A stretch of 24,000 nucleotides of DNA from an uncultured Alphaproteobacteria bacterium (lineage in GTDB: Bacteria > Pseudomonadota > Alphaproteobacteria > ATCC43930 > CGMCC-115725), in assembly GCA_963789255.1 (NCBI GenBank), contig CAWBJW010000001.1, positions 459,157-483,156 on the forward strand, given 5' to 3'. Under the pieces are notes generated by a model. That model saw only the letters and a program-made list of their open reading frames with translations, did no database searches and had not been told where the DNA came from. Shown here in pieces: positions 15,406-24,000 of the stretch (its first letter is position 1; the number at the start of each line of letters is the position of its first letter). The position numbers and the translations under genes were made by a program.

Positions 15406-16125
15406 TCAGGCCTCCTCGTCATCATCGATCGCAGTTAACGCGACCTCGTTTCCAAAAACCAGCCCGCCGGGGTTGACCGAGACGGCATCCACAACCACGC
15501 CCACCGGCAACCCGCCAAGAGAAGCGAGAACGGCTCGGGCAAACTCCTTCATATCGTCCGAAATCCGGAGTTTCGCACCGCGCATGCTTAACTCGAAGAC
15601 CCGGTAAATACGGTAGGGACCGCTACCGTCGGCGGCCATCTCCTTCAGTTCAGGCAGCGAGACATGAAATTCGCGTTCAAAGGTCATTGATGTCGTCTTT
15701 ACATCAACCCTCTCCGCCGCACCCGCAACCGGCGTGAGCCTAAAGTCCATTGGTGCCACGGCGTTAACGTCGGAAATCCATTCAAATGCGGTTATGGCGC
15801 CGTCAGCCGTTTGGCGTTCCAGGTACGCGGCAACCAGTTCCTCGCCGGCACGGCCGGTTTCGTCCGCCTGCGCACGCGCCCGGCGCAGCGCTTCAATTGA
15901 AACCGTCGGCGCCCGGCCACGGCGTAGCAGTCTCTCCGTCGCCGCCGCTCCTCCGAGCGCGATTTCCTGAAGGTCGCCGGAGAGCGTAAAGTTGAAAAGA
16001 GGATGGTCCTCGGCCAGCCCGGCAATCGCCGCTATTTCTGCGATTTGCGCTTCATCCAAAACCCGCATCGTGTCTCGTGGTCCGGATAGCCCGAGCCCAT
16101 CAAGGGCGGAATGGAGTTCGAGCAT
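15406..16125 (-). CDS. DUF3883-type (PD-(D/E)xK-like) nuclease domain protein. It is the probable catalytic part of the restriction endonuclease.
   Basis: GRAGEELVAAYLE...WISDVNAVAPMDFRL...ERVDVKTTSMTFEREFHVSLPELKEMAA...YRIYRVFEL follows the E...D...(D/E)xK...RV pattern of DUF3883/restriction-endonuclease-like domains (from memory). The ggagg abuts the ATG with no spacer, so independent initiation is doubtful. Confidence 0.65.
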   Translation of the reverse strand: MLELHSALDGLGLSGPRDTMRVLDEAQIAEIAAIAGLAEDHPLFNFTLSGDLQEIALGGAAATERLLRRGRAPTVSIEALRRARAQADETGRAGEELVAAYLERQTADGAITAFEWISDVNAVAPMDFRLTPVAGAAERVDVKTTSMTFEREFHVSLPELKEMAADGSGPYRIYRVFELSMRGAKLRISDDMKEFARAVLASLGGLPVGVVVDAVSVNPGGLVFGNEVALTAIDDDEEA

Positions 16126-16540
16126 CCTCCGGAAGCGATCGGGCGACGAACAGGGCGGTCGCCGCAGAGGGGACTATGTCACCCTCAAAGGAAAATATGA
16201 CGTAGTCGTCGGGCAAGAGCGGATTGAAGCGATCGGGTTCGTCCAGTGGATTTGCGATGAACTCGCCATCTAACCGCCAGTTTTTATAGGTCCCACCTTT
16301 AATTATTTTGCGTTGTAAATTAATTGGCGCTCGATTTCCCGGGCCGAATATCCACAGGTCTAATGGAATCCTTCCGCTCCCCCTGGTGGCCTCCCCAATA
16401 GTCGGAAATAGCTGATCAACGAAGACATTTGCATTCAGGTTTATCGATTTCTGACCGCCAACATCGAGCTGCCTGAACTGCCACTCGAATAGCGTCAGGT
16501 CGGAGGCTGTCAGCTTCTTCAATGCAAGCTTGGACGTCAT
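16100..16540 (-). CDS. EcoRII-N-like (B3-type) DNA-binding domain protein. It is the probable N-terminal part of the restriction endonuclease.
   Basis: The ATG at 16540 overlaps the methyltransferase stop (ATGA). LKKLTASDLTLF...VGGQKSINLNANVFVDQLFPTI parallels the EcoRII N-domain IKRLSANDTGATGGHQVGLYIPSGIVEKLFPSI (recalled, not aligned by software). The tracked ORF upstream of 16540 is a shadow of the methyltransferase gene. Confidence 0.55.
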   Translation of the reverse strand: MTSKLALKKLTASDLTLFEWQFRQLDVGGQKSINLNANVFVDQLFPTIGEATRGSGRIPLDLWIFGPGNRAPINLQRKIIKGGTYKNWRLDGEFIANPLDEPDRFNPLLPDDYVIFSFEGDIVPSAATALFVARSLPEDARTPFRP

Positions 16541-18084
16541 CCTTTGCCAAATAGCGCCTTCCGCACCACCTCGGCAACCGCCTTGGCCATCAAAGGCGGG
16601 ACCGCGTTGCCTATCTGTCGGAATGCCGGGTTCATCGTTCCACGAAAGCGAAAGCCGTCCGGAAAGGATTGGAGTCGGGCCGCCTCTCGCACGCTTATCG
16701 TTCGTGCCTGACTGCTGTCGTAGTGGATGTGGGAGTAACCATCCTTGCCGAGATGCGCCATCAGCGTTCGCGCCGGTGCGTCCGATTCCATTTTCCTCCA
16801 TTTGTTCGGGAATTTGGTATCGTCGTAGGGGGGAACAATGCTTGCCCGAAGTCTCTTCCGCAACGTCGCCCTCTGCGCAGATGACGCGGCGGGATCAAGC
16901 TCGCGCTCGACGGCTTCTGCCAGCATTCGGAGGGCTAGTTGATAGGCCTCTGGATATTGGTCGCCGGGCTGCATGCGCCCAAAAATGGCGTAATCACGCG
17001 GCAGATAACGGATTACGTGGTCGTATACGCCCTCCTCGCTGTCAAAGCCGGGCCATCTCCGCATTAGCTTCGCATAATCATTTAGCGGCAGGTTGGCGGT
17101 GTAGGCCGTCAGCTCCGTGAAGCGGCGAGCGCCCCGACGCAATTTACCCTCAAGGTGCAGCGTGATCCGCGGAAGATCGGACAAGGCGTCCCGTGCCGTT
17201 ACCGCAGCAGGCAGGTCCGGCGCCGGCTCAGGCGTAGCGCATAGTCGCGCGCCGGTTTTGAATAGATCGGCGACATTCTTGAAAGCTACTTGTCTTGTTC
17301 CCTCGTATCCGCGAGGCAGCTCGTGCCAGTGCGTAGGCTCAGGAAAGTTCGGGACAATCCCCAATTCTGTTGCATACGCGACGAGGAACATCCGCTCGCG
17401 CATTTGCGGCACCCCATAGCGCACAGAATTAAGCAGCGCGTAGCGCGCCACATACCTTTTGGCCTCTAGGGCTTCACACATCTCCTCGGCTATATTGTGC
17501 CCTCCGAAATTCATGACATCAGGGACGTTTTCCATTATTACCGCAAGAGGCTGGAATTCCTCCACATATTCCATGAAGCTGACGTAGAGGTTTGCCCGTT
17601 TGTCATGCTTGAAGGCCTGCGGATGCTCCGCGATCTCGCGTAATTTCGCGCGACCAACCCTGGCAAACGCCTGACAAGGGGGACCGCCAATGAGCAGGTC
17701 GATGCAGTCGGCGGTATTACCGAGGCCGAGCTCGCGCGCAAGGACAGCCGGTGGCGTATCGATTATATCCCTGGGAGTCGAATGGCTGGTTCGTTGTTGC
17801 CAAGTCGCCTGCCGATGAAAGTTTAATGCGTGCGACTCCGCGGCAAGCGGATCATGCTCGACAGCTCCGGAAAGTGAGAATCCCGCCGAGACAAATCCGA
17901 GAGACATTCCCCCACAGCCGGCAAACAGATCCAGGACCCGAGGGGAACCGCCGAGCCGAAGCCGATCAAGCTTCCTGCCCCGCGGGCGGTCATCTCCCCC
18001 AATCGCGGAGAATGCATCCGTGCCCGTGTAAGGCGCAATCGGCGACCACAGTTCCAACATCTGCCCTGGGATTATATCCAACAT
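16537..18084 (-). CDS. DNA (cytosine-5-)-methyltransferase
   Basis: All the key C5-MTase motifs are in order: I LDLFAGCGGMSLGF, IV GGPPCQAFARVG, VI VIMENVPDV, VIII QMRERMFLVAY, a long variable TRD, IX RLQSFPDGFRF, and X RQIGNAVPPLMA. Confidence 0.95.
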   Translation of the reverse strand: MLDIIPGQMLELWSPIAPYTGTDAFSAIGGDDRPRGRKLDRLRLGGSPRVLDLFAGCGGMSLGFVSAGFSLSGAVEHDPLAAESHALNFHRQATWQQRTSHSTPRDIIDTPPAVLARELGLGNTADCIDLLIGGPPCQAFARVGRAKLREIAEHPQAFKHDKRANLYVSFMEYVEEFQPLAVIMENVPDVMNFGGHNIAEEMCEALEAKRYVARYALLNSVRYGVPQMRERMFLVAYATELGIVPNFPEPTHWHELPRGYEGTRQVAFKNVADLFKTGARLCATPEPAPDLPAAVTARDALSDLPRITLHLEGKLRRGARRFTELTAYTANLPLNDYAKLMRRWPGFDSEEGVYDHVIRYLPRDYAIFGRMQPGDQYPEAYQLALRMLAEAVERELDPAASSAQRATLRKRLRASIVPPYDDTKFPNKWRKMESDAPARTLMAHLGKDGYSHIHYDSSQARTISVREAARLQSFPDGFRFRGTMNPAFRQIGNAVPPLMAKAVAEVVRKALFGKG

Positions 18085-18522: not shown

Positions 18523-19773
18523 TTGCCTGAATTTGATTGGACCGGCGGCGATCTGCCGACCTTCGTCACTCACCTGGAATGCAGCCTGACCGGCGAGCGC
18601 TATCCGGCCGATCGGCTGCACGGCCTGTCGCGCGCCGGACGGCCGCTCCTGGTGCGCTACGACCTCGACGGCGTGCGCCGGGCGCTCCCGCGGGAGGCGC
18701 TCGATGCCCGCCCGCAGAGCCTGTGGCGCTACCGCGAATTGCTGCCGGTGCGCCATCCGGAAAACGTCCTCTCGCTCGGCGAGGTGGTGACCCCACTGGT
18801 GTCGCTGCCGCGCCTTGCGAAAGGCGGCGAGCTCTTGGTCAAGGACGAGGGGCGGCTGCCGACCGGCTCGTTCAAGGCACGCGGCCTGGTGCTCGCGGTG
18901 TCGATGGCGAAGGAGCTTGGCGTCACCGCCATGGCGATGCCGAGCAACGGCAATGCCGGCGCGGCAATGGCGGCCTATTGCGCGCGCGCCGGGATCGCCG
19001 CGACGGTGTTCGTCCCCGACGACACGCCCGATGTGAACGTCCGCGAGATCGCGATGCAGGGCGCCCGGGTGTTCCTCGTCGACGGCCTCATTGACGATTG
19101 CGGCCGGCTCGTCGCCGAGGGCGAGAAGGCCGTCGGCTGGTTCAATTGCTCGACGCTGCGCGAGCCCTATCGCATCGAGGGCAAGAAGACGATGGGCATC
19201 GAATTGGCCGAGCAGCTCGGCTGGGAGGTGCCCGACGTCATTTTCTACCCGACCGGCGGCGGCACCGGCATCATCGGCATGTGGAAGGCGTTCGACGAAT
19301 TGGAGGCGATCGGCTGGATCGGCAACAAGCGGCCGCGCATGGTCGTCGTCCAGGCAGCGGGCTGCGCGCCGATGGTCAAGGCCTGGGAGGACGGCGTCGA
19401 GCATGCGCCGCGCTGGGCCGACGCGCGCACCTTCGCCGCCGGTATAAGGGTGCCGCAAGCCGTCGGCGATTTCCTGATCCTGCGCGCGGTGCGCGACAGC
19501 GGCGGGTTTGCGATTGCCGTCGATGACGCGGCGATCGCGCGGGCGTGGCGCGAGGTCGCAGTCGAGGAAGGGCTGTTGCTGTGCCCGGAGGGCGCGGCGA
19601 CCTATGCCGCCTATCGGGCGGCGGTGGCGGACGGGCGGGTCCGCCCGGGCGAGCGCGCCGTGCTGTTCAACTGCGCGACCGGGCTCAAATATCCGATGCC
19701 CGAGGCGGGAACCCGGCTGAAGCTCGGCAGCCCGGTTGACTGGGGGCAGATGCAGCGGCCGGCTTCGGGCTGA
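18523..19773 (+). CDS. threonine synthase-family PLP-dependent enzyme
   Basis: LWRYRELLPV, SLGEVVTPLV, the PLP-lysine motif KDEGRLPTGSFKARG, SNGNAG and YPTGGGTGIIG. The tracked start is a TTG at 18523, so the start is uncertain. Confidence 0.85.
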   Translation: MPEFDWTGGDLPTFVTHLECSLTGERYPADRLHGLSRAGRPLLVRYDLDGVRRALPREALDARPQSLWRYRELLPVRHPENVLSLGEVVTPLVSLPRLAKGGELLVKDEGRLPTGSFKARGLVLAVSMAKELGVTAMAMPSNGNAGAAMAAYCARAGIAATVFVPDDTPDVNVREIAMQGARVFLVDGLIDDCGRLVAEGEKAVGWFNCSTLREPYRIEGKKTMGIELAEQLGWEVPDVIFYPTGGGTGIIGMWKAFDELEAIGWIGNKRPRMVVVQAAGCAPMVKAWEDGVEHAPRWADARTFAAGIRVPQAVGDFLILRAVRDSGGFAIAVDDAAIARAWREVAVEEGLLLCPEGAATYAAYRAAVADGRVRPGERAVLFNCATGLKYPMPEAGTRLKLGSPVDWGQMQRPASG

Positions 19774-19962
19774 AACCTGAAGCATCCGCCCGCGGCCTGA
19801 CCATCCGGCGGCTTAACCATAACGGGTCCCATCGCCCGCGCGGTTGTGGTAAGAGGGCGCAACTCAACGTGCTGCGCGCGACCGGCGCGGCGCAACGGCG
19901 GTCTGGAATTGCCAAAACAACGTGTTATGGTGCGCCCTTGGTCGCGGTAACGGAGAACGCAG

Positions 19963-21618
19963 ATGCCTGAAGCGGTGTGGAATGGGTTTCTGCGGCTGTC
20001 ACTGGTTTCGTGTCCGGTCCACCTCGCGCCGGCGACCAGCGACGCCCATATCATCCACCTCGACCAGCTCAATTCGCGGACCGGCAACCCGGTCTCCCGG
20101 CAATTCGTCGATTCGCGGACCGGCGACGTCGTCAGTCCCAATGCCGTCGTCAGGGGGTATCAGCGCGCCGGATCGGGCTATGTCACCCTTGCCGACAGCG
20201 AGCTCGCGGCGCTCGCCAGCGAGCCACCCAACATCGTCGAGGTGACGCATTTCATCCCGCGCAACCAGGTTGACCGGGCGCGTCTCGAATCCAGCTATTA
20301 CATCTACCCGGACGGCCAGCTCGCGGCAGACACGCTCGAAGCCCTGCGCCTGGCGATGCAGCGCAACGAGCGCGACGCGATCGCCCATGTCCACCTCGGC
20401 GAGCGCGAGTGCATGGTGATGATCCAGCTGCATGGCGCCGGACTGCTGCTGTCGACGTTGCGCCCGCCGCGGGTGCTCGAACCGGCCGAATTCGTCGAGC
20501 GGCCCGAGAGCGCAATCCCGGGGGAGATGGTCGAGGTCGCCGAGGGGATCATCGCGCGCCGCACTCTCGGTTCCGATGCAAACATGCTCTACGACCGATA
20601 CGAGGAGCGGCTGCGCTCGTTGATCGAGCAGAAATCGGGGGGTGCCCCGGCCCTGCCACCGCGGCCGGCCCCGCCCGCCGCGGTGGTAGCTCCGCCTCCG
20701 CCTCCACCCCCGGCAGCTCCCGCGCCGGAGCCCGAACCGCCGGCCGCCGCCGCGCCGCCGCCGCCCGAACCCGAACCGGCCGCCGCCGAGCCGCCGCCGC
20801 CCGAACCCGAACCGCCGGCCGCCGCCGCGCCGCCGCCGCCCGAACCCGAGCCGGCCGCCGCCGCGCCGCCGCCGCCCGAACCCGAGCCGGCCGCCGCCGA
20901 GCCGCCGCCGCCCGAACCCGAACCGCCGGCCGCCGCCGAGCCGCCGCCGCCAGAACCCGAACCGCCGGCCGCCGCCGAGCCGCCGCCGCCCGAACCCGAA
21001 CCCGCCGCCGCCGCTCCGCCACCTCCGCCCGAGCCGGCAGCGGCCGCTCCTGTTCCAGAGCCCCCGCCTGCGCGTGCAACGCCGCGGCCCGAGGCGGCAT
21101 CGCCGGCGGACGCCGACGCGGCGCGGGCGCGGGCCGAGAGAGAGATCTTCGGGTCGCCGCCCGTCCCGTCCGGGGAACAGTCGGGACGCGAGCTTGGCAC
21201 CGAGATTCTGCTGCACATCATGGGACTTGGCGATCGCCGTTTCGTCGAGCCCGGCTGGGCCGGCCATCCAGGCAGCCGCCGCCAGATCGAGGCGATGAGC
21301 ATCCGGCCGCGCGAGGAGCTCGAGCCGAGCGCGCTCGAGTTCCGCGTCTTCGCGCAGGAGGGCCGCGCGACCGCCTGGGTCAGCAACGGCAATTACGCCG
21401 GAACCCGCGGCCGGCAATTGCCGCTGACCGGCTTTGCGGTGCGCCCGGCGACCGAGCTGCGCGACCGGTTCGACGTCGTTTACGAAGGCTGCTTCTTCGA
21501 TGGCGGGGTGGTCGGGCCAAAACAGAATGGCGAGATCTGCACCTCGCCGGTCGCGAACGACCCGCTCGAAGCGGTCCGCATCAGCATTGTCGAGCGCTCG
21601 GGCGGTCGCGCGGCGTGA
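19963..21618 (+). CDS. ku: Ku (NHEJ DNA-end-binding) protein with a long Pro/Ala/Glu repeat linker and an extra C-terminal repeat domain
   Basis: ggagaa RBS. The N-terminal approx. 225 aa read WNGFLRLSLVSCPVHLAPATS...LDQLNSRTGNPVSRQFVDSRTGDVV...GYVTLADSELAAL...VEVTHFIPRNQVDRARLESSYYIYPDG...MVMIQLHGAGLLLSTLRPP, as in bacterial Ku. The single open frame continues to 551 aa. Confidence 0.85.
   Translation: MPEAVWNGFLRLSLVSCPVHLAPATSDAHIIHLDQLNSRTGNPVSRQFVDSRTGDVVSPNAVVRGYQRAGSGYVTLADSELAALASEPPNIVEVTHFIPRNQVDRARLESSYYIYPDGQLAADTLEALRLAMQRNERDAIAHVHLGERECMVMIQLHGAGLLLSTLRPPRVLEPAEFVERPESAIPGEMVEVAEGIIARRTLGSDANMLYDRYEERLRSLIEQKSGGAPALPPRPAPPAAVVAPPPPPPPAAPAPEPEPPAAAAPPPPEPEPAAAEPPPPEPEPPAAAAPPPPEPEPAAAAPPPPEPEPAAAEPPPPEPEPPAAAEPPPPEPEPPAAAEPPPPEPEPAAAAPPPPPEPAAAAPVPEPPPARATPRPEAASPADADAARARAEREIFGSPPVPSGEQSGRELGTEILLHIMGLGDRRFVEPGWAGHPGSRRQIEAMSIRPREELEPSALEFRVFAQEGRATAWVSNGNYAGTRGRQLPLTGFAVRPATELRDRFDVVYEGCFFDGGVVGPKQNGEICTSPVANDPLEAVRISIVERSGGRAA
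20728..21048 (+). repeat. in-frame tandem repeat, 36/39-bp units encoding PPPPEPEP(P)AAA(A/E), 7 full copies plus degenerate ends
   Basis: Unit boundaries read from the sequence are 20755, 20791, 20830, 20866, 20902, 20941 and 20980, with unit lengths 36, 39, 36, 36, 39, 39 and 36. The copies are near-identical (ccgccgccgcccgaacccga(a/g)ccg(ccg)gccgccgcc(gcg/gag)). Confidence 0.9.
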
Positions 21619-21655: not shown

Positions 21656-23290
21656 TCATAATCGTAGTTGTCGTTCGAGGATGTCGGGCAGATCGTTTTC
21701 GATCAGCACGACGTCGTGCCCGGCGAGATGGCGGTCGAGCCAAGTCTGCGCTTCGGCAAAGGTCGGGCACGACACGATTTCGCGCTCGGGCGCGGCCTGC
21801 GAAAAGGCGGCGACGAGCGGCGCCACCCGGTGCGGCGCGACGGCGACCAGAACATCGACGTGGCTCGCGGCGAGCCGGCCGATCCGCGCGTGCTCCGCCT
21901 CGTGCTCGCTGCCCAGTTCGGCCATGCCGGGGGTGACGAGAATGCGGCGTCCGCCCGGTTGCCGCAGCGAATCGAGCAGCGCGAGCGCCGAGGCGAAGCC
22001 GACCGGGTTCGAATTGTAGGCGTCGTCGATCACGATCGTGCCGTCGCCCGGGCGCTTGACTTCGAGGCGATGGGCGACCTGCGGCGTGCTCTTGAGGCTG
22101 GCGACGACGTCCTCGGGCATCAGCCCGAGCGTGCATGCGGCGGCGAAGGCGAGCGCAACGTTGCGGCCTTGATGCAGTCCGAAGAGCGGCGCGCGCAGCT
22201 CATAGCCCTGGCCATGCCAGCCGATCTGCGCGACGATCCCATCGCTCTCCTGGCGCAGCGCCGCGATCACCAGGTCGGCGGTATCCTCGCCCCCGACGGT
22301 CACCACCCGGTCGCGGTGCCGCTCGACGAATTCCCGCGGCCAGGCAAGGTCCAGGATTTCGGCGGCGACGATGATCGTGCCGCCATTGTCGCGCACCGCC
22401 TCGGCCAGCTCGAATTTGGCATGGGCCACCGCATCGAGCGACTTGAAACGCTCGTAATGCGCCTTGCCGACCGCGCTGATAATGCCGATCCGCGGCGGGG
22501 TCAGCGCGCACAGGCGGCGAATCGAGCCGATGCCGTAGGCACCCATTTCGACGACGAAATAGCGGTGATGCGGTTGCAGGCGTTCGCGGATCACCCGGGC
22601 GATGCCCATTGCCGTGTTGACGCTGCCCGGCGTGATCAGAACAGGCCCGGCGGTTTCGAGCACGTGCCCGAGGATGTGCTTGACCGACGTTTTGCCGTAG
22701 GAGCCGGTCACCGCAATGACGATCGGATCCACCCGATGCAACACCGCGCGCGCTTCGCGCCAGTAGCGGGCTTGCACCCGCGCCTCGAACGGCGCCAGTA
22801 GCAGATTGGCGCCGACCAGCGTCAGCGGCAGAAGCTGCACCAGCACGATCCACACAAGTACCAGGAAGCTGAGCTTGGCCGCCGCAAGCCCTGCTGCGGC
22901 GCTCAATGTCAGTGCGATCGCGTAGATGCGCTTGGCGCGGGCGGTCATCGCCAGTGGCTTCTTCGCGGTCCTGAGCGGGTTGCGTTCGAAGACTGCGGCA
23001 CCGACGAAGGCGATCCCGACGGGCACCACAAACGACAAAGCCAGATACGGCGTCATCCCCGGCCCAACCAGGGCCGCCAGCTGCGTCACGAACAGAACCA
23101 GCAACACCAGCGACAGACGCCGGTCAAATCCGCGCTCGCGCCACAACCAATCCAAGAAGCGGCGGTTGTCGTATTCCTCCTGCTGAAACAGGTGCAGGTA
23201 GGTCAGCAGCCGGCGCGCCGCGAACGGCAGGAAGCCGATCAGCGTGATAAGTAGCGGGACCAGACCGATCAGATCAAAAAGCGCGCGCAC
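21656..23290 (-). CDS. Mur ligase family protein (MurF-like) with an N-terminal multi-pass membrane domain
   Basis: The first approx. 185 aa contain about 5 hydrophobic helices (LIGLVPLLITLIGFLPF, LSLVLLVLFVTQLAALVG, LALSFVVPVGIAFVGAAVF, IYAIALTLSAAAGLAAA, FLVLVWIVLVQLLPLTLVGANLLL). After that come Mur ligase motifs: the P-loop VTGSYGKTS, MurF-like IDDAYNSNP and TPGMAELG. The start is a GTG at 23290. Confidence 0.8.
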   Translation of the reverse strand: MRALFDLIGLVPLLITLIGFLPFAARRLLTYLHLFQQEEYDNRRFLDWLWRERGFDRRLSLVLLVLFVTQLAALVGPGMTPYLALSFVVPVGIAFVGAAVFERNPLRTAKKPLAMTARAKRIYAIALTLSAAAGLAAAKLSFLVLVWIVLVQLLPLTLVGANLLLAPFEARVQARYWREARAVLHRVDPIVIAVTGSYGKTSVKHILGHVLETAGPVLITPGSVNTAMGIARVIRERLQPHHRYFVVEMGAYGIGSIRRLCALTPPRIGIISAVGKAHYERFKSLDAVAHAKFELAEAVRDNGGTIIVAAEILDLAWPREFVERHRDRVVTVGGEDTADLVIAALRQESDGIVAQIGWHGQGYELRAPLFGLHQGRNVALAFAAACTLGLMPEDVVASLKSTPQVAHRLEVKRPGDGTIVIDDAYNSNPVGFASALALLDSLRQPGGRRILVTPGMAELGSEHEAEHARIGRLAASHVDVLVAVAPHRVAPLVAAFSQAAPEREIVSCPTFAEAQTWLDRHLAGHDVVLIENDLPDILERQLRL

Positions 23291-24000
23291 CCACTTGCTC
23301 CAGGAATTCGCCGAGGCGCTGGACGAGCTGGTGATGGCCGTCGGTCAGGATGTCGAGATGGCCGAAGCCGCGCAGCACCACGAGCCGTGATTGCGGGATC
23401 AGGTTTTCGAGGCGCCGGCCGATGTCGAGCGGGGCGTCGCGGTCCATGTCGCCATAGACCAGCATCACCGGCACGCGGATCGCACGCGCCGCCTCGCTTA
23501 GATCCTCGTTAACCGCCTTGACCAGCACCTGCCGCAGCAGCGGGCTGGCCTGCAAGTAATCCGAGCTGCCGAAGCGACGGCGCAGCCGGTCGCGCGCGGG
23601 GCCTTCGGGGGTGAATTGCCGCGCCAGTCGGAACGTCCAGCGCCGCACCGCGACCCGACCCCGCGCCCATGGCGAGCGCTGCGGCGGCAGACCGGGCGCG
23701 GCGATCAGGAACAGCCCGGCGAGCGTCTCGGGGTGGCGCGCCGCAAGCTGCAACCCGACCCGGCAGCCGAACGAATGGGCGACCCAGATGCGGCGCGCCG
23801 GCGGGCACAGGGCGAGCCATTCCGCCATCGCATCGGCATAATCCGCGGTGCTCCACGGCCCTGGCGGCGCCGGCGAGGCGCCGAAGCCGGGAAAATCGAT
23901 GAGGATCGATCGGGCGGAGCGCCGCATCGCCTGCGCCAGCGGGAGCAGCGCCGCGTGCGTCTGGCCCCAGCCAGGCGCCCAGATCAGCTCTGCCGACCCC
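23274..24000 (-). CDS. alpha/beta hydrolase fold protein (5' end outside the window)
   Basis: The frame stays open to the window edge (...ELIWAPGWGQTHAALLPLAQAMRR...DFPGFGASP). It has the nucleophile elbow VAHSFGCRVG and a C-terminal GFGHLD histidine motif. Its stop overlaps the Mur-ligase start by 17 nt. Confidence 0.75.
   Translation of the reverse strand, partial: GSAELIWAPGWGQTHAALLPLAQAMRRSARSILIDFPGFGASPAPPGPWSTADYADAMAEWLALCPPARRIWVAHSFGCRVGLQLAARHPETLAGLFLIAAPGLPPQRSPWARGRVAVRRWTFRLARQFTPEGPARDRLRRRFGSSDYLQASPLLRQVLVKAVNEDLSEAARAIRVPVMLVYGDMDRDAPLDIGRRLENLIPQSRLVVLRGFGHLDILTDGHHQLVQRLGEFLEQVGARAF

Follow-up and report, generated by a model that had tools for sequence, protein, structure and literature searches.

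In bacteria, non-homologous end joining (NHEJ) usually counts as a minimal system of two proteins, with Ku as a ring of one domain that bears a short basic tail. Canonical bacterial Ku (TIGR02772; Bacillus subtilis YkoV and Mycobacterium tuberculosis Rv0937c) is composed of a β-barrel/ring core followed by a minimal C-terminal helix, and in a 2025 survey prokaryotic Ku comprises the core domain only, apart from an HEH extension in Streptomyces coelicolor (PMC11936186). The extended C-terminus of bacterial Ku spans 1–155 residues, is basic, and binds DNA (PMC9638933). Eukaryotic Ku70 and Ku80 end in a linker with a SAP domain and a linker with a DNA-PKcs-binding domain, respectively, each a small globular domain on a flexible C-terminal tether (PMC11936186). 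ChW repeats, whose ligand is undefined, are found mostly in endolysins and are believed to work as triplets; they were first proposed to serve in surface anchoring or protein–protein interaction, and classical proteins of this type are extracellular (PMC5817068). In Lactobacillus lysins, peptidoglycan is bound by the ChW binding domains (PMC10610939). Here we describe a gene at positions 19963–21618 (+ strand) of a 24,000-nucleotide stretch of an uncultured Alphaproteobacteria bacterium (contig CAWBJW010000001.1 of assembly GCA_963789255.1, positions 459,157–483,156; hereafter the window), which encodes a Ku protein ending in a ChW-type module (Ku-ChW).

With canonical bacterial Ku, this protein shares the core and the minimal C-terminal helix, but it has a long, acidic extension with a folded domain at the end, no ligD gene lies adjacent, and it is apparently a second paralogue. 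Ku of S. coelicolor (C-terminal HEH; PMC11936186) and of mycobacteria (Lys-rich low-complexity tails; PMC9638933) also carries non-standard C-terminal additions; these are short, basic, and DNA-binding, whereas the tail of Ku-ChW is long and acidic and is predicted to end in a non-DNA-binding fold. The design is the same as in Ku70 and Ku80, although the appended domain is unrelated (a ChW β module), the core is of the homodimeric bacterial type without a vWA domain, and the origin is independent. The module is like the ChW repeat proteins and the binding domains of phage endolysins in its Pfam match, profile matches, fold, and proposed three-repeat unit, but differs from them in that there is only one triplet, the outer repeats of which are degenerate, in its Gram-negative host, in the lack of a signal peptide, and in being carried by a DNA-binding protein without a lytic or surface domain.

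Overall architecture and spread of the fusion

The gene forms one open reading frame (ORF) of 551 codons plus stop on the + strand and encodes a three-part protein, consisting of a Ku core that includes the conserved minimal C-terminal helix (aa 1–228; 19963–20646), an acidic, disordered Pro/Ala/Glu-rich linker (aa 229–411; 20647–21195), and a C-terminal, all-β ChW-type module of 134 residues (aa 412–545; 21196–21597). An identical protein, P0121, was found in the full-length search and is encoded on a 1.35-Mb contig of a metagenome-assembled genome (MAG). An earlier note, made from the letters of this DNA alone, had described a 551-aa ORF with a Ku core, a Pro/Ala linker, and a C-terminal ChW-like triple, and the tools bore out all of these main elements. 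The identity of the protein as a Ku paralogue of Stellaceae, in which a Ku core is followed by a spacer and a ChW module, can be regarded as nearly certain. The arrangement lies far beyond chance, because the two homologous ends stand in one frame both here and in 26 of 29 related genomes.

These genomes came from a scan of GTDB with the module alignment, taking one genome per species, which returned 80 loci, nearly all of them from Stellaceae (the NCBI name is now Allostellaceae, Rhodospirillales) or from uncultured Alphaproteobacteria MAGs; no cultured Stella/Allostella genome was among the matches of this species-representative scan. A close module (66–96% identity) is present at 29 loci, 27 of which have a Ku core directly upstream. 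Core, linker, and module lie in one uninterrupted ORF of 386–703 aa at 26 of the 29 loci; of the remaining three, two are cut by contig ends and one, from a long-read MAG, changes frame directly after the core. An initial search with the C-terminal 172 aa had returned only proteins of up to 301 aa with ChW alone; the full-length search found more than 100 proteins of 400–600 aa with precomputed Pfam Ku and ChW domains. These are named only 'Ku protein' or 'DNA end-binding protein Ku', and several are from 'Stellaceae bacterium'. Contig L001 is error-prone, but its stops fall within the Ku core, and a single open frame runs through the C-terminal part of Ku, a linker of ~190 aa, and the module.

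The fusion is a real, lineage-wide Ku subfamily of Stellaceae/Allostellaceae, known from at least 29 genomes at the species level and represented by over 100 proteins in databases; its taxonomic spread and the suspicion that misassembly had joined two genes were both points that the earlier note had wished to see checked, and the second is answered by the 26 single-ORF loci. The same note knew of no described fusion of this kind. None was found in the searchable literature either, but the architecture does exist in databases, where it is annotated automatically as Ku and is uncharacterised.

Two contigs deviate from the single frame: in the JGI 3300050821 contig of P0012 and in L006:8782-10483, core and module lie in different frames, and the frame changes where the Pro-rich linker starts or immediately after. 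These shifts are probably indel errors in repeats rich in GC; the alternative would be a true frameshift, or slippage that switches the module on and off. Separately, P0009 (283 aa, on a contig of 1,581 nt) has an unrelated non-Ku N-terminal region ahead of a Ku-fused-type module that is 79% identical and includes the AETRLF motif; a domain swap, a rearrangement, or chimerism of the short contig could explain it.

Ku core

The N-terminal part of the window protein matches Pfam Ku PF02735 at aa 12–167 (E 1.5e-27; 97 bits against a cut-off of 25), the NCBIfam equivalog Ku_bact TIGR02772 at aa 4–229 (171 bits against a cut-off of 150), and a Ku-like PHROG (E 2e-20). With phmmer, aa 2–235 were aligned to the solved bacterial Ku structures 8v53, 9i91, and 9vnq (E about 1e-17), and the alignment to 8v53, which reaches aa 235, pairs DRYEERLRSLIEQK of the minimal C-terminal region with DTYQEQLQELIDTK. 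This region forms a helix at aa 212–224 (nt 20596–20634) in the full-length AlphaFold2 (AF2) model, the best PDB matches of which are Ku–DNA complexes of B. subtilis and M. tuberculosis (9vnq, 9i91, and 8v53; probability 1.0), with target-normalised template modelling (TM) scores of about 0.55, in a monomer model that cannot show ring closure. The protein thus contains a bona fide bacterial Ku core that retains the conserved LigD-interacting minimal C-terminal helix, and would be expected to homodimerise, to bind DNA ends, and to stimulate ligation. Its C-terminal extension of ~325 aa, acidic and ending in a folded module, lies outside the described range of 1–155-aa basic tails; in its relatives, the extension reaches up to about 480 aa.

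C-terminal ChW-type module

Pfam ChW (PF07538) matches aa 471–493 with 27 bits in the whole protein and 32 bits in the C-terminal 187 aa, against a gathering score of 22 bits. The middle repeat alone (aa 458–495; nt 21334–21447) scores 24 bits with the Pfam model, and has an independent E-value (i-E) of 8e-7 with a custom profile built from 45 repeat units of three classical ChW proteins (P0360, P0370, and P0278). In the window protein, repeat 1 (aa 415–449; nt 21205–21309) and repeat 3 (aa 503–543; nt 21469–21591) match the custom profile weakly but in the expected register (i-E 0.17 and 0.11, respectively). Across the family, the profile finds three in-register segments at i-E < 1 in 29 of 39 members, repeat 2 scoring about 1e-7, repeat 1 from 1e-5 to 0.08, and repeat 3 through its last strand only. 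Invariant Trp residues are found in repeat 1 (G431–W432) and repeat 2 (W472); repeat 3 has no Trp. Because direct hhalign comparisons among the three repeats are weak (E 0.02, 0.17, and 0.86), the module appears best stated as one canonical ChW repeat between two degenerate ones. The proposal that the middle segment recalls the ChW consensus, for which a Pfam search of aa 380–551 was the suggested check, is therefore confirmed above the Pfam cut-off. As for the three repeats proposed alongside it, the middle one is significant by itself and all three stand in register, while the outer two are weak in this protein.

The assignment to ChW extends beyond the Pfam match. A family profile of 263 positions was used in an exhaustive HMMER search of 1.84 billion representatives and retrieved 4,799 proteins at E ≤ 1e-3, a set enriched in two-domain cassettes since sequence weighting had drawn the N-domain of paralogues (see below) into the profile. 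Classical ChW proteins are among the matches: P0360, with 14 ChW repeats and a GH25 lysozyme domain (E 3.5e-47), P0370, with 13 ChW repeats (1.3e-46), and P0278 (1.5e-60). AF2 folds the module with a predicted local distance difference test (pLDDT) score above 93 into three β-β-β units, and Foldseek against BFVD returned five predicted phage lysins/lysozymes (E 5e-7 to 9e-5, probability 1.0, TMq 0.56–0.61), in which the aligned parts are not confirmed as annotated ChW. No solved structure was matched by Foldseek, and PHROGs gave no match for the module. Structure prediction of the C-terminal domain, another check called for in the earlier note, has in this way given a confident β fold with phage-lysin models, not experimental structures, as its counterparts. 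Since the Pfam match, the profile matches to proteins with 13–14 ChW repeats, and the fold match to phage lysins agree, the identification of the module as a true ChW relative is solid.

Comparison of 27 fusions gives a mean pairwise identity of 80% for the module versus 57% for the Ku core, the module being the higher in 350 of 351 pairs, and 40% of its alignment columns are invariant versus 5% for the core. Because it exceeds the core in both respects, the appended ChW domain is the most constrained part of the protein. In a neighbour-joining (NJ) tree, 30 Ku-fused modules form one clade that excludes all other modules; this monophyly indicates that the module was acquired by Ku once, in a single fusion event.

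The low values for the Ku core (L003–L031) are an observation in their own right: with 57% mean identity and 5% invariant columns, the core is fast-evolving compared not only with its own module (80%) but also with the neighbouring PALP gene (18523–19773; 80–90% identity to the window). Since the core diverges faster than both, the DNA-binding part of the fusion subfamily may be under relaxed or shifting constraint.

Proline-rich linker and short helix

Tandem Repeats Finder detects an in-frame repeat at 20723–21032, with a 39-nt unit in 8.2 copies (90% matches, score 464), which encodes 13-aa units of PPPPEPEP(P)AAA(A/E). The linker carries a net charge of −22 and an isoelectric point (pI) of 4.05 over aa 231–405, and aa 228–380 form a coil without secondary structure in the AF2 model (pLDDT 48–64). 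In orthologues, the linker varies from 31 to 337 aa, is always Pro-rich (15–54% Pro), and is not alignable, as fits the "hypervariable-looking" region of the original description; most linkers are acidic (net −11 to −41), whereas that of L019 is rich in Ser and those of L025, L026, and L028 are mildly basic. Disorder, hypervariable length and sequence, and constant Pro richness together argue that what selection keeps is a long proline-rich spacer, that is, length and composition rather than sequence. The in-frame period of the tandem repeat suggests that linkers grow and shrink by slippage.

A short predicted helix, PADADAARARAEREIF (aa 381–396; 21103–21150), lies ~15 aa ahead of the module and is helical in both AF2 models (pLDDT about 65–76). 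Its AE[RQ]x[LIVA]F motif occurs in 14 of 139 family proteins, all of the window's subclade, and bears what we take to be a superficial resemblance to QxxLF-type clamp-binding peptides.

Expression signals and location

When 28 regions upstream of fusion genes are aligned, at least 80% of them share a conserved block (consensus C.TG.TAT), and 21 of the 28 contain an extended −10-like match of the TGnTA(T/A) type ~37–48 nt before the ATG. In the window, this block holds the candidate extended −10 element TGTTATGGT (19923–19931, + strand; ~40 nt upstream of the ATG), followed by a Shine–Dalgarno GGAG (19952–19955, + strand; 7 nt before the ATG) that is kept in at least 80% of the same 28 regions. 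The conservation of the −10-like block implies that the Ku-ChW gene may have its own promoter, consisting of TGTTATGGT as a candidate element together with the Shine–Dalgarno sequence; a simple promoter and terminator scan was uninformative. Regulation by DNA damage or stress is not supported, as the upstream regions of the 28 loci lack a GTTC-N7-GTTC SOS box, a box of the E. coli type, and an EcfG/RpoE2-type GGAAC-N-GTT motif. The window protein has no signal peptide and no hydrophobic segment (maximum KD19 of 1.11), its N-terminus being that of Ku. Because these export features are lacking and no secretion genes lie nearby, Ku-ChW is presumably cytoplasmic.

Genomic neighbourhood and relation to LigD

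The gene is preceded by a PALP/threonine-synthase-like gene (18523–19773, + strand) and followed convergently by a gene of the Mur-ligase family with a hydrophobic N-terminal region (21656–23290, − strand), exactly the two neighbours that had been named from the letters. The other annotated ORFs of the window are housekeeping-like (a GH3 hydrolase, ScpB, TatC, a TatA/B-family protein, SDR, Gln/Glu-tRNA synthetase, a TPR protein, and a Rieske oxygenase). Only the PALP gene is a conserved neighbour of the fusion (25 of 29 loci, 80–90% identical); in the fusion loci examined, no repair gene is conserved beside the fusion and no secretion gene lies near it. PADLOC returned nothing for Ku-ChW, the PALP gene, or the Mur-ligase-like gene, and membership of a known defence system was rejected on this basis.

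The Mur-ligase-like gene belongs to a block with a hydrolase and a Ddl-like gene that is confined to the window's subclade (8 of the loci; convergent with Ku-ChW in L003, L004, L006–L009, and L023), and fusions outside this subclade have LysR and TrxR-like genes downstream. The restriction to one subclade marks the block as synteny and not as a conserved partnership, and a functional coupling with Ku-ChW was rejected. In the block itself (21656–23927, − strand; L084:11680-15365), the Mur-ligase-family protein, whose N-terminal part contains several hydrophobic segments, comes before an α/β-hydrolase and, in L084 and L085, a D-Ala-D-Ala-ligase-like ATP-grasp gene. It may represent a peptide-ligating pathway; a tie between this pathway and a peptidoglycan-type ligand of ChW would be pure speculation.

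No LigD-type domain was detected among the scanned ORFs of the 24-kb window, nor in any fusion locus, and a ligase adenylation-motif scan of the collected loci was positive only in L083. There, a canonical Ku that is 41% identical to the window core stands back-to-back with LigD, and a search with this LigD returned full three-domain proteins named 'DNA ligase D [Stellaceae bacterium]'. A divergent ku–ligD pair was then seen in five contexts (ku of 332–338 aa in four and of 236 aa in L093; ligD of ~855 aa). The canonical ku/ligD loci, all divergent and in Stellaceae-type MAGs, are L086:3894-7556, L088:1-3682, L091:2875-6598, L092:2859-6580, L093:2882-6574, and L083:2-2604; an Abhydrolase_11 gene is often found beside the canonical ku. 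In the MAG JAFAYW, a canonical Ku of 343 aa (L081) and the fusion (L005) are both present. Because Stellaceae MAGs carry the canonical pair, and JAFAYW holds both types of Ku, the fusion is most simply read as a probable additional, specialised paralogue beside the canonical ku–ligD pair. The description of the gene as an orphan consequently applies to the window, where ligD is indeed absent, but not to Stellaceae MAGs, in which a separate canonical pair occurs. For comparison, ku and ligD lie within 10 kb of each other in 75% of genomes with conventional NHEJ and more than 10 kb apart in 25%, and 2–8 Ku copies are present in 16% of NHEJ-carrying bacteria (PMC7719229).

Further upstream, the window contains a low-GC islet (15406–18084, − strand; GC 0.565–0.617 versus about 0.68 elsewhere in the window), which is not conserved beside the fusion in other loci. 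One of its ORFs (16537–18084) matches type II MTase models (E 6.5e-74) and encodes a DNA methylase of the C5 cytosine kind, another (15406–16125) has weak NOV_C and PADLOC PDC-S36 matches, and the third (16100–16801) has no match. This is possibly a horizontally acquired restriction–modification or defence islet.

Paralogues and other carriers of the module

Stellaceae also have stand-alone proteins of about 280 aa, in which a distinct N-domain of ~120 aa and a short linker precede a module 43–59% identical to the Ku-fused one. About 30 invariant residues are common to the two kinds of module, and the stand-alone proteins are the probable donor family of the module of Ku. They occur in the same genomes as the fusion, but contain no Ku, and their N-domain is absent from Ku-ChW; the same holds for the long glycosyltransferase cassettes described below, whose module is likewise homologous. 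Over 62 genomes (five weaker loci left out), 14 have both the fusion and a stand-alone paralogue, 15 have the fusion only, including the complete chromosome OY970069.1, and 33 have the stand-alone paralogue only, a pattern that rules out obligate co-inheritance of the fusion with the stand-alone paralogue or with its type I secretion cluster.

Two genomic contexts recur around the stand-alone genes. In the first, the module gene is followed, in this order, by a methyltransferase, a family 4 glycosyltransferase (GT4), an OmpR-type regulator, and an ABC transporter with a C39 domain plus HlyD, which form a type I secretion pair (L032:999-8669 and L036:9569-16935, each on one strand; also L033, L044, L046, L064, and L078); this looks like an uncharacterised secretion or glycosylation system. 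In the second, two module genes surround a GT4 gene beside CysNC, which makes 3′-phosphoadenosine 5′-phosphosulfate (PAPS), in the order luciferase-like monooxygenase, module gene, GT4, module gene, and CysNC (sulfate adenylyltransferase/adenosine 5′-phosphosulfate kinase; L068, L073, L075, L077, L080, and L081, e.g. L077:9383-14574). This order hints at a sulfated glycan or glycoconjugate pathway.

The cassette of N-domain and module also terminates P0281, P0290, P0287, and P0300, which are proteins of ~1,260–1,400 aa with TPR, GT2, and GT4/GT1 domains, and the WcbI–TPR protein P0249 (1,045 aa). Dozens of such long cassette proteins are found among the best 150 of the 4,799 profile matches, and no hydrophobic segment was found in the TPR–GT2–GT4/GT1 and WcbI–TPR proteins examined. 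Judged from these contexts and fusions, ChW-type modules appear to be repeatedly coupled to glycan synthesis or export, and those fused to glycosyltransferases presumably reside on soluble, cytoplasmic enzymes. That such modules also sit on soluble glycosyltransferases without hydrophobic segments makes a cytoplasmic Ku-ChW less paradoxical. The view that ChW repeats are normally extracytoplasmic is right for the classical proteins (PMC5817068), but does not cover members of the same family on soluble TPR–GT2–GT4 proteins.

Proposed role of the module and alternatives

We tentatively propose that Ku-ChW is a tethered anchor for a saccharide-type ligand, a reading to which we give slightly less than an even chance. 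According to this proposal, the Ku homodimer would thread onto DNA ends like any Ku, while the usual short basic tail would be replaced by the long, mostly acidic, proline-rich spacer ending in the triple-ChW module. Each subunit would project a flexible arm of 31–337 aa, depending on the species, so that two tethered modules would be displayed per ring. The terminal module would act as a ligand-binding anchor for a non-DNA ligand, most probably one containing saccharide (a glycan, a glycoconjugate, or a muropeptide-like molecule), through which Ku might position DNA ends at a cellular structure or hold them there, or might recruit a partner. Such a protein would act alongside, and not instead of, the canonical ku–ligD pair. 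The choice of a saccharide-type ligand follows from the peptidoglycan binding by the ChW domains of lysins (PMC10610939) and from the glycan contexts of the paralogues.

A serious competitor, although on balance we think it rather unlikely, is that the module recruits a protein (LigD, canonical Ku, another repair enzyme, or a second Ku-ChW for synapsis) and that no carbohydrate is involved. The C-terminus of characterised bacterial Ku binds LigD and stabilises synapsis (PMC9638933; also PMC4889933 and PMC7969030), eukaryotic Ku70/80 contact a partner or DNA with their tethered C-terminal domains, and the very strong constraint on the module is what would be expected of a specific interface; moreover, protein–protein interaction was, beside surface anchoring, an original proposal for ChW (PMC5817068). 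However, the LigD-binding minimal helix is already kept upstream of the linker, the conserved residues of the module are common to paralogues in glycan and secretion contexts that have no link to repair, and the fusion loci share no conserved neighbouring repair gene.

It is very unlikely that Ku-ChW is exported, for example by the type I system of its paralogues, so that ChW would sit on a surface glycan and the Ku ring on extracellular DNA ends. Long Pro-rich spacers are typical of envelope-spanning proteins such as TonB, and Ku needs no cofactors to bind DNA. Genes for ABC(C39)–HlyD exporters lie next to those of the module's closest non-Ku relatives, type I substrates have no N-terminal signal peptides, and the classical ChW proteins are extracellular (PMC5817068). 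Nevertheless, the stand-alone paralogues are themselves only putative cargo of that exporter, and no stand-alone paralogue was seen in 15 of the 29 fusion genomes, the complete chromosome among them. Secretion genes are lacking near every fusion locus, no recognisable C-terminal secretion tail extends past the folded module, and the same cassette is carried by soluble glycosyltransferases that use cytoplasmic nucleotide sugars.

Hardly credible, too, is an equivalence of the C-terminal part to the basic extended C-terminus of other bacterial Ku, as a DNA-binding or bridging tail. In B. subtilis and mycobacteria, such C-termini restrict threading and contribute to bridging, besides binding DNA (PMC9638933), and the linkers of the few lineages noted above are mildly basic (L025, L026, and L028), yet most species have a strongly acidic linker (net −11 to −41) and a neutral to acidic module (pI 4.6–6.9 across species), and the module is related to binding domains of lysins and to appendages of glycosyltransferases rather than to nucleic-acid binders. 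Since the linker of the window protein has a net charge of −22 and known extended tails are basic (PMC9638933), the C-terminal part is predicted to differ in kind from a DNA-binding tail.

Finally, a misassembly or frameshift across the GC-rich repeat that joined a Ku gene to a separate ChW gene, as might be read from the JGI contig on which Ku (325 aa) and the module (169 aa) are called as genes overlapping by 13 nt in different frames, from the frame change between core and module in L006, and from the many short ChW-only database fragments, can practically be dismissed, being ruled out by the single uninterrupted ORF in 26 of 29 independent species-representative assemblies, both short-read and long-read, and by L001, where linker and module are open in one frame and the indel errors lie inside the Ku core, while more than 100 full-length fusions are on record, the fragments come from contigs of about 1 kb or from contig ends, and the repeat period is a multiple of three.

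Implications

Returning to the proposed tethered anchor, a bolder version of it, which we consider improbable, would have the ChW arms tether broken chromosome ends or linear DNA to a structure that contains carbohydrate (for example a storage glycan, a glycan associated with the envelope, a glycoconjugate, or a muropeptide-type molecule), and in the extreme would have exported Ku catch extracellular DNA ends at the cell surface. If true, glycan tethering would amount to a bacterial form of spatial anchoring of double-strand breaks, and in either version the recognition of glycans would for the first time be tied directly, at the molecular level, to a protein that binds DNA ends.

The ligand of Ku-ChW, once found, would offer a tractable handle on ChW, a widespread repeat with a largely undefined ligand, here found outside its extracellular Gram-positive setting, on soluble proteins without export signals (Ku and large glycosyltransferases). 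The subfamily further indicates that bacteria, like eukaryotes, have independently added to Ku a tethered globular accessory domain, which is more constrained than the core itself, and the ligand of this module could reveal how DNA ends are positioned or handled in slow-growing soil bacteria.

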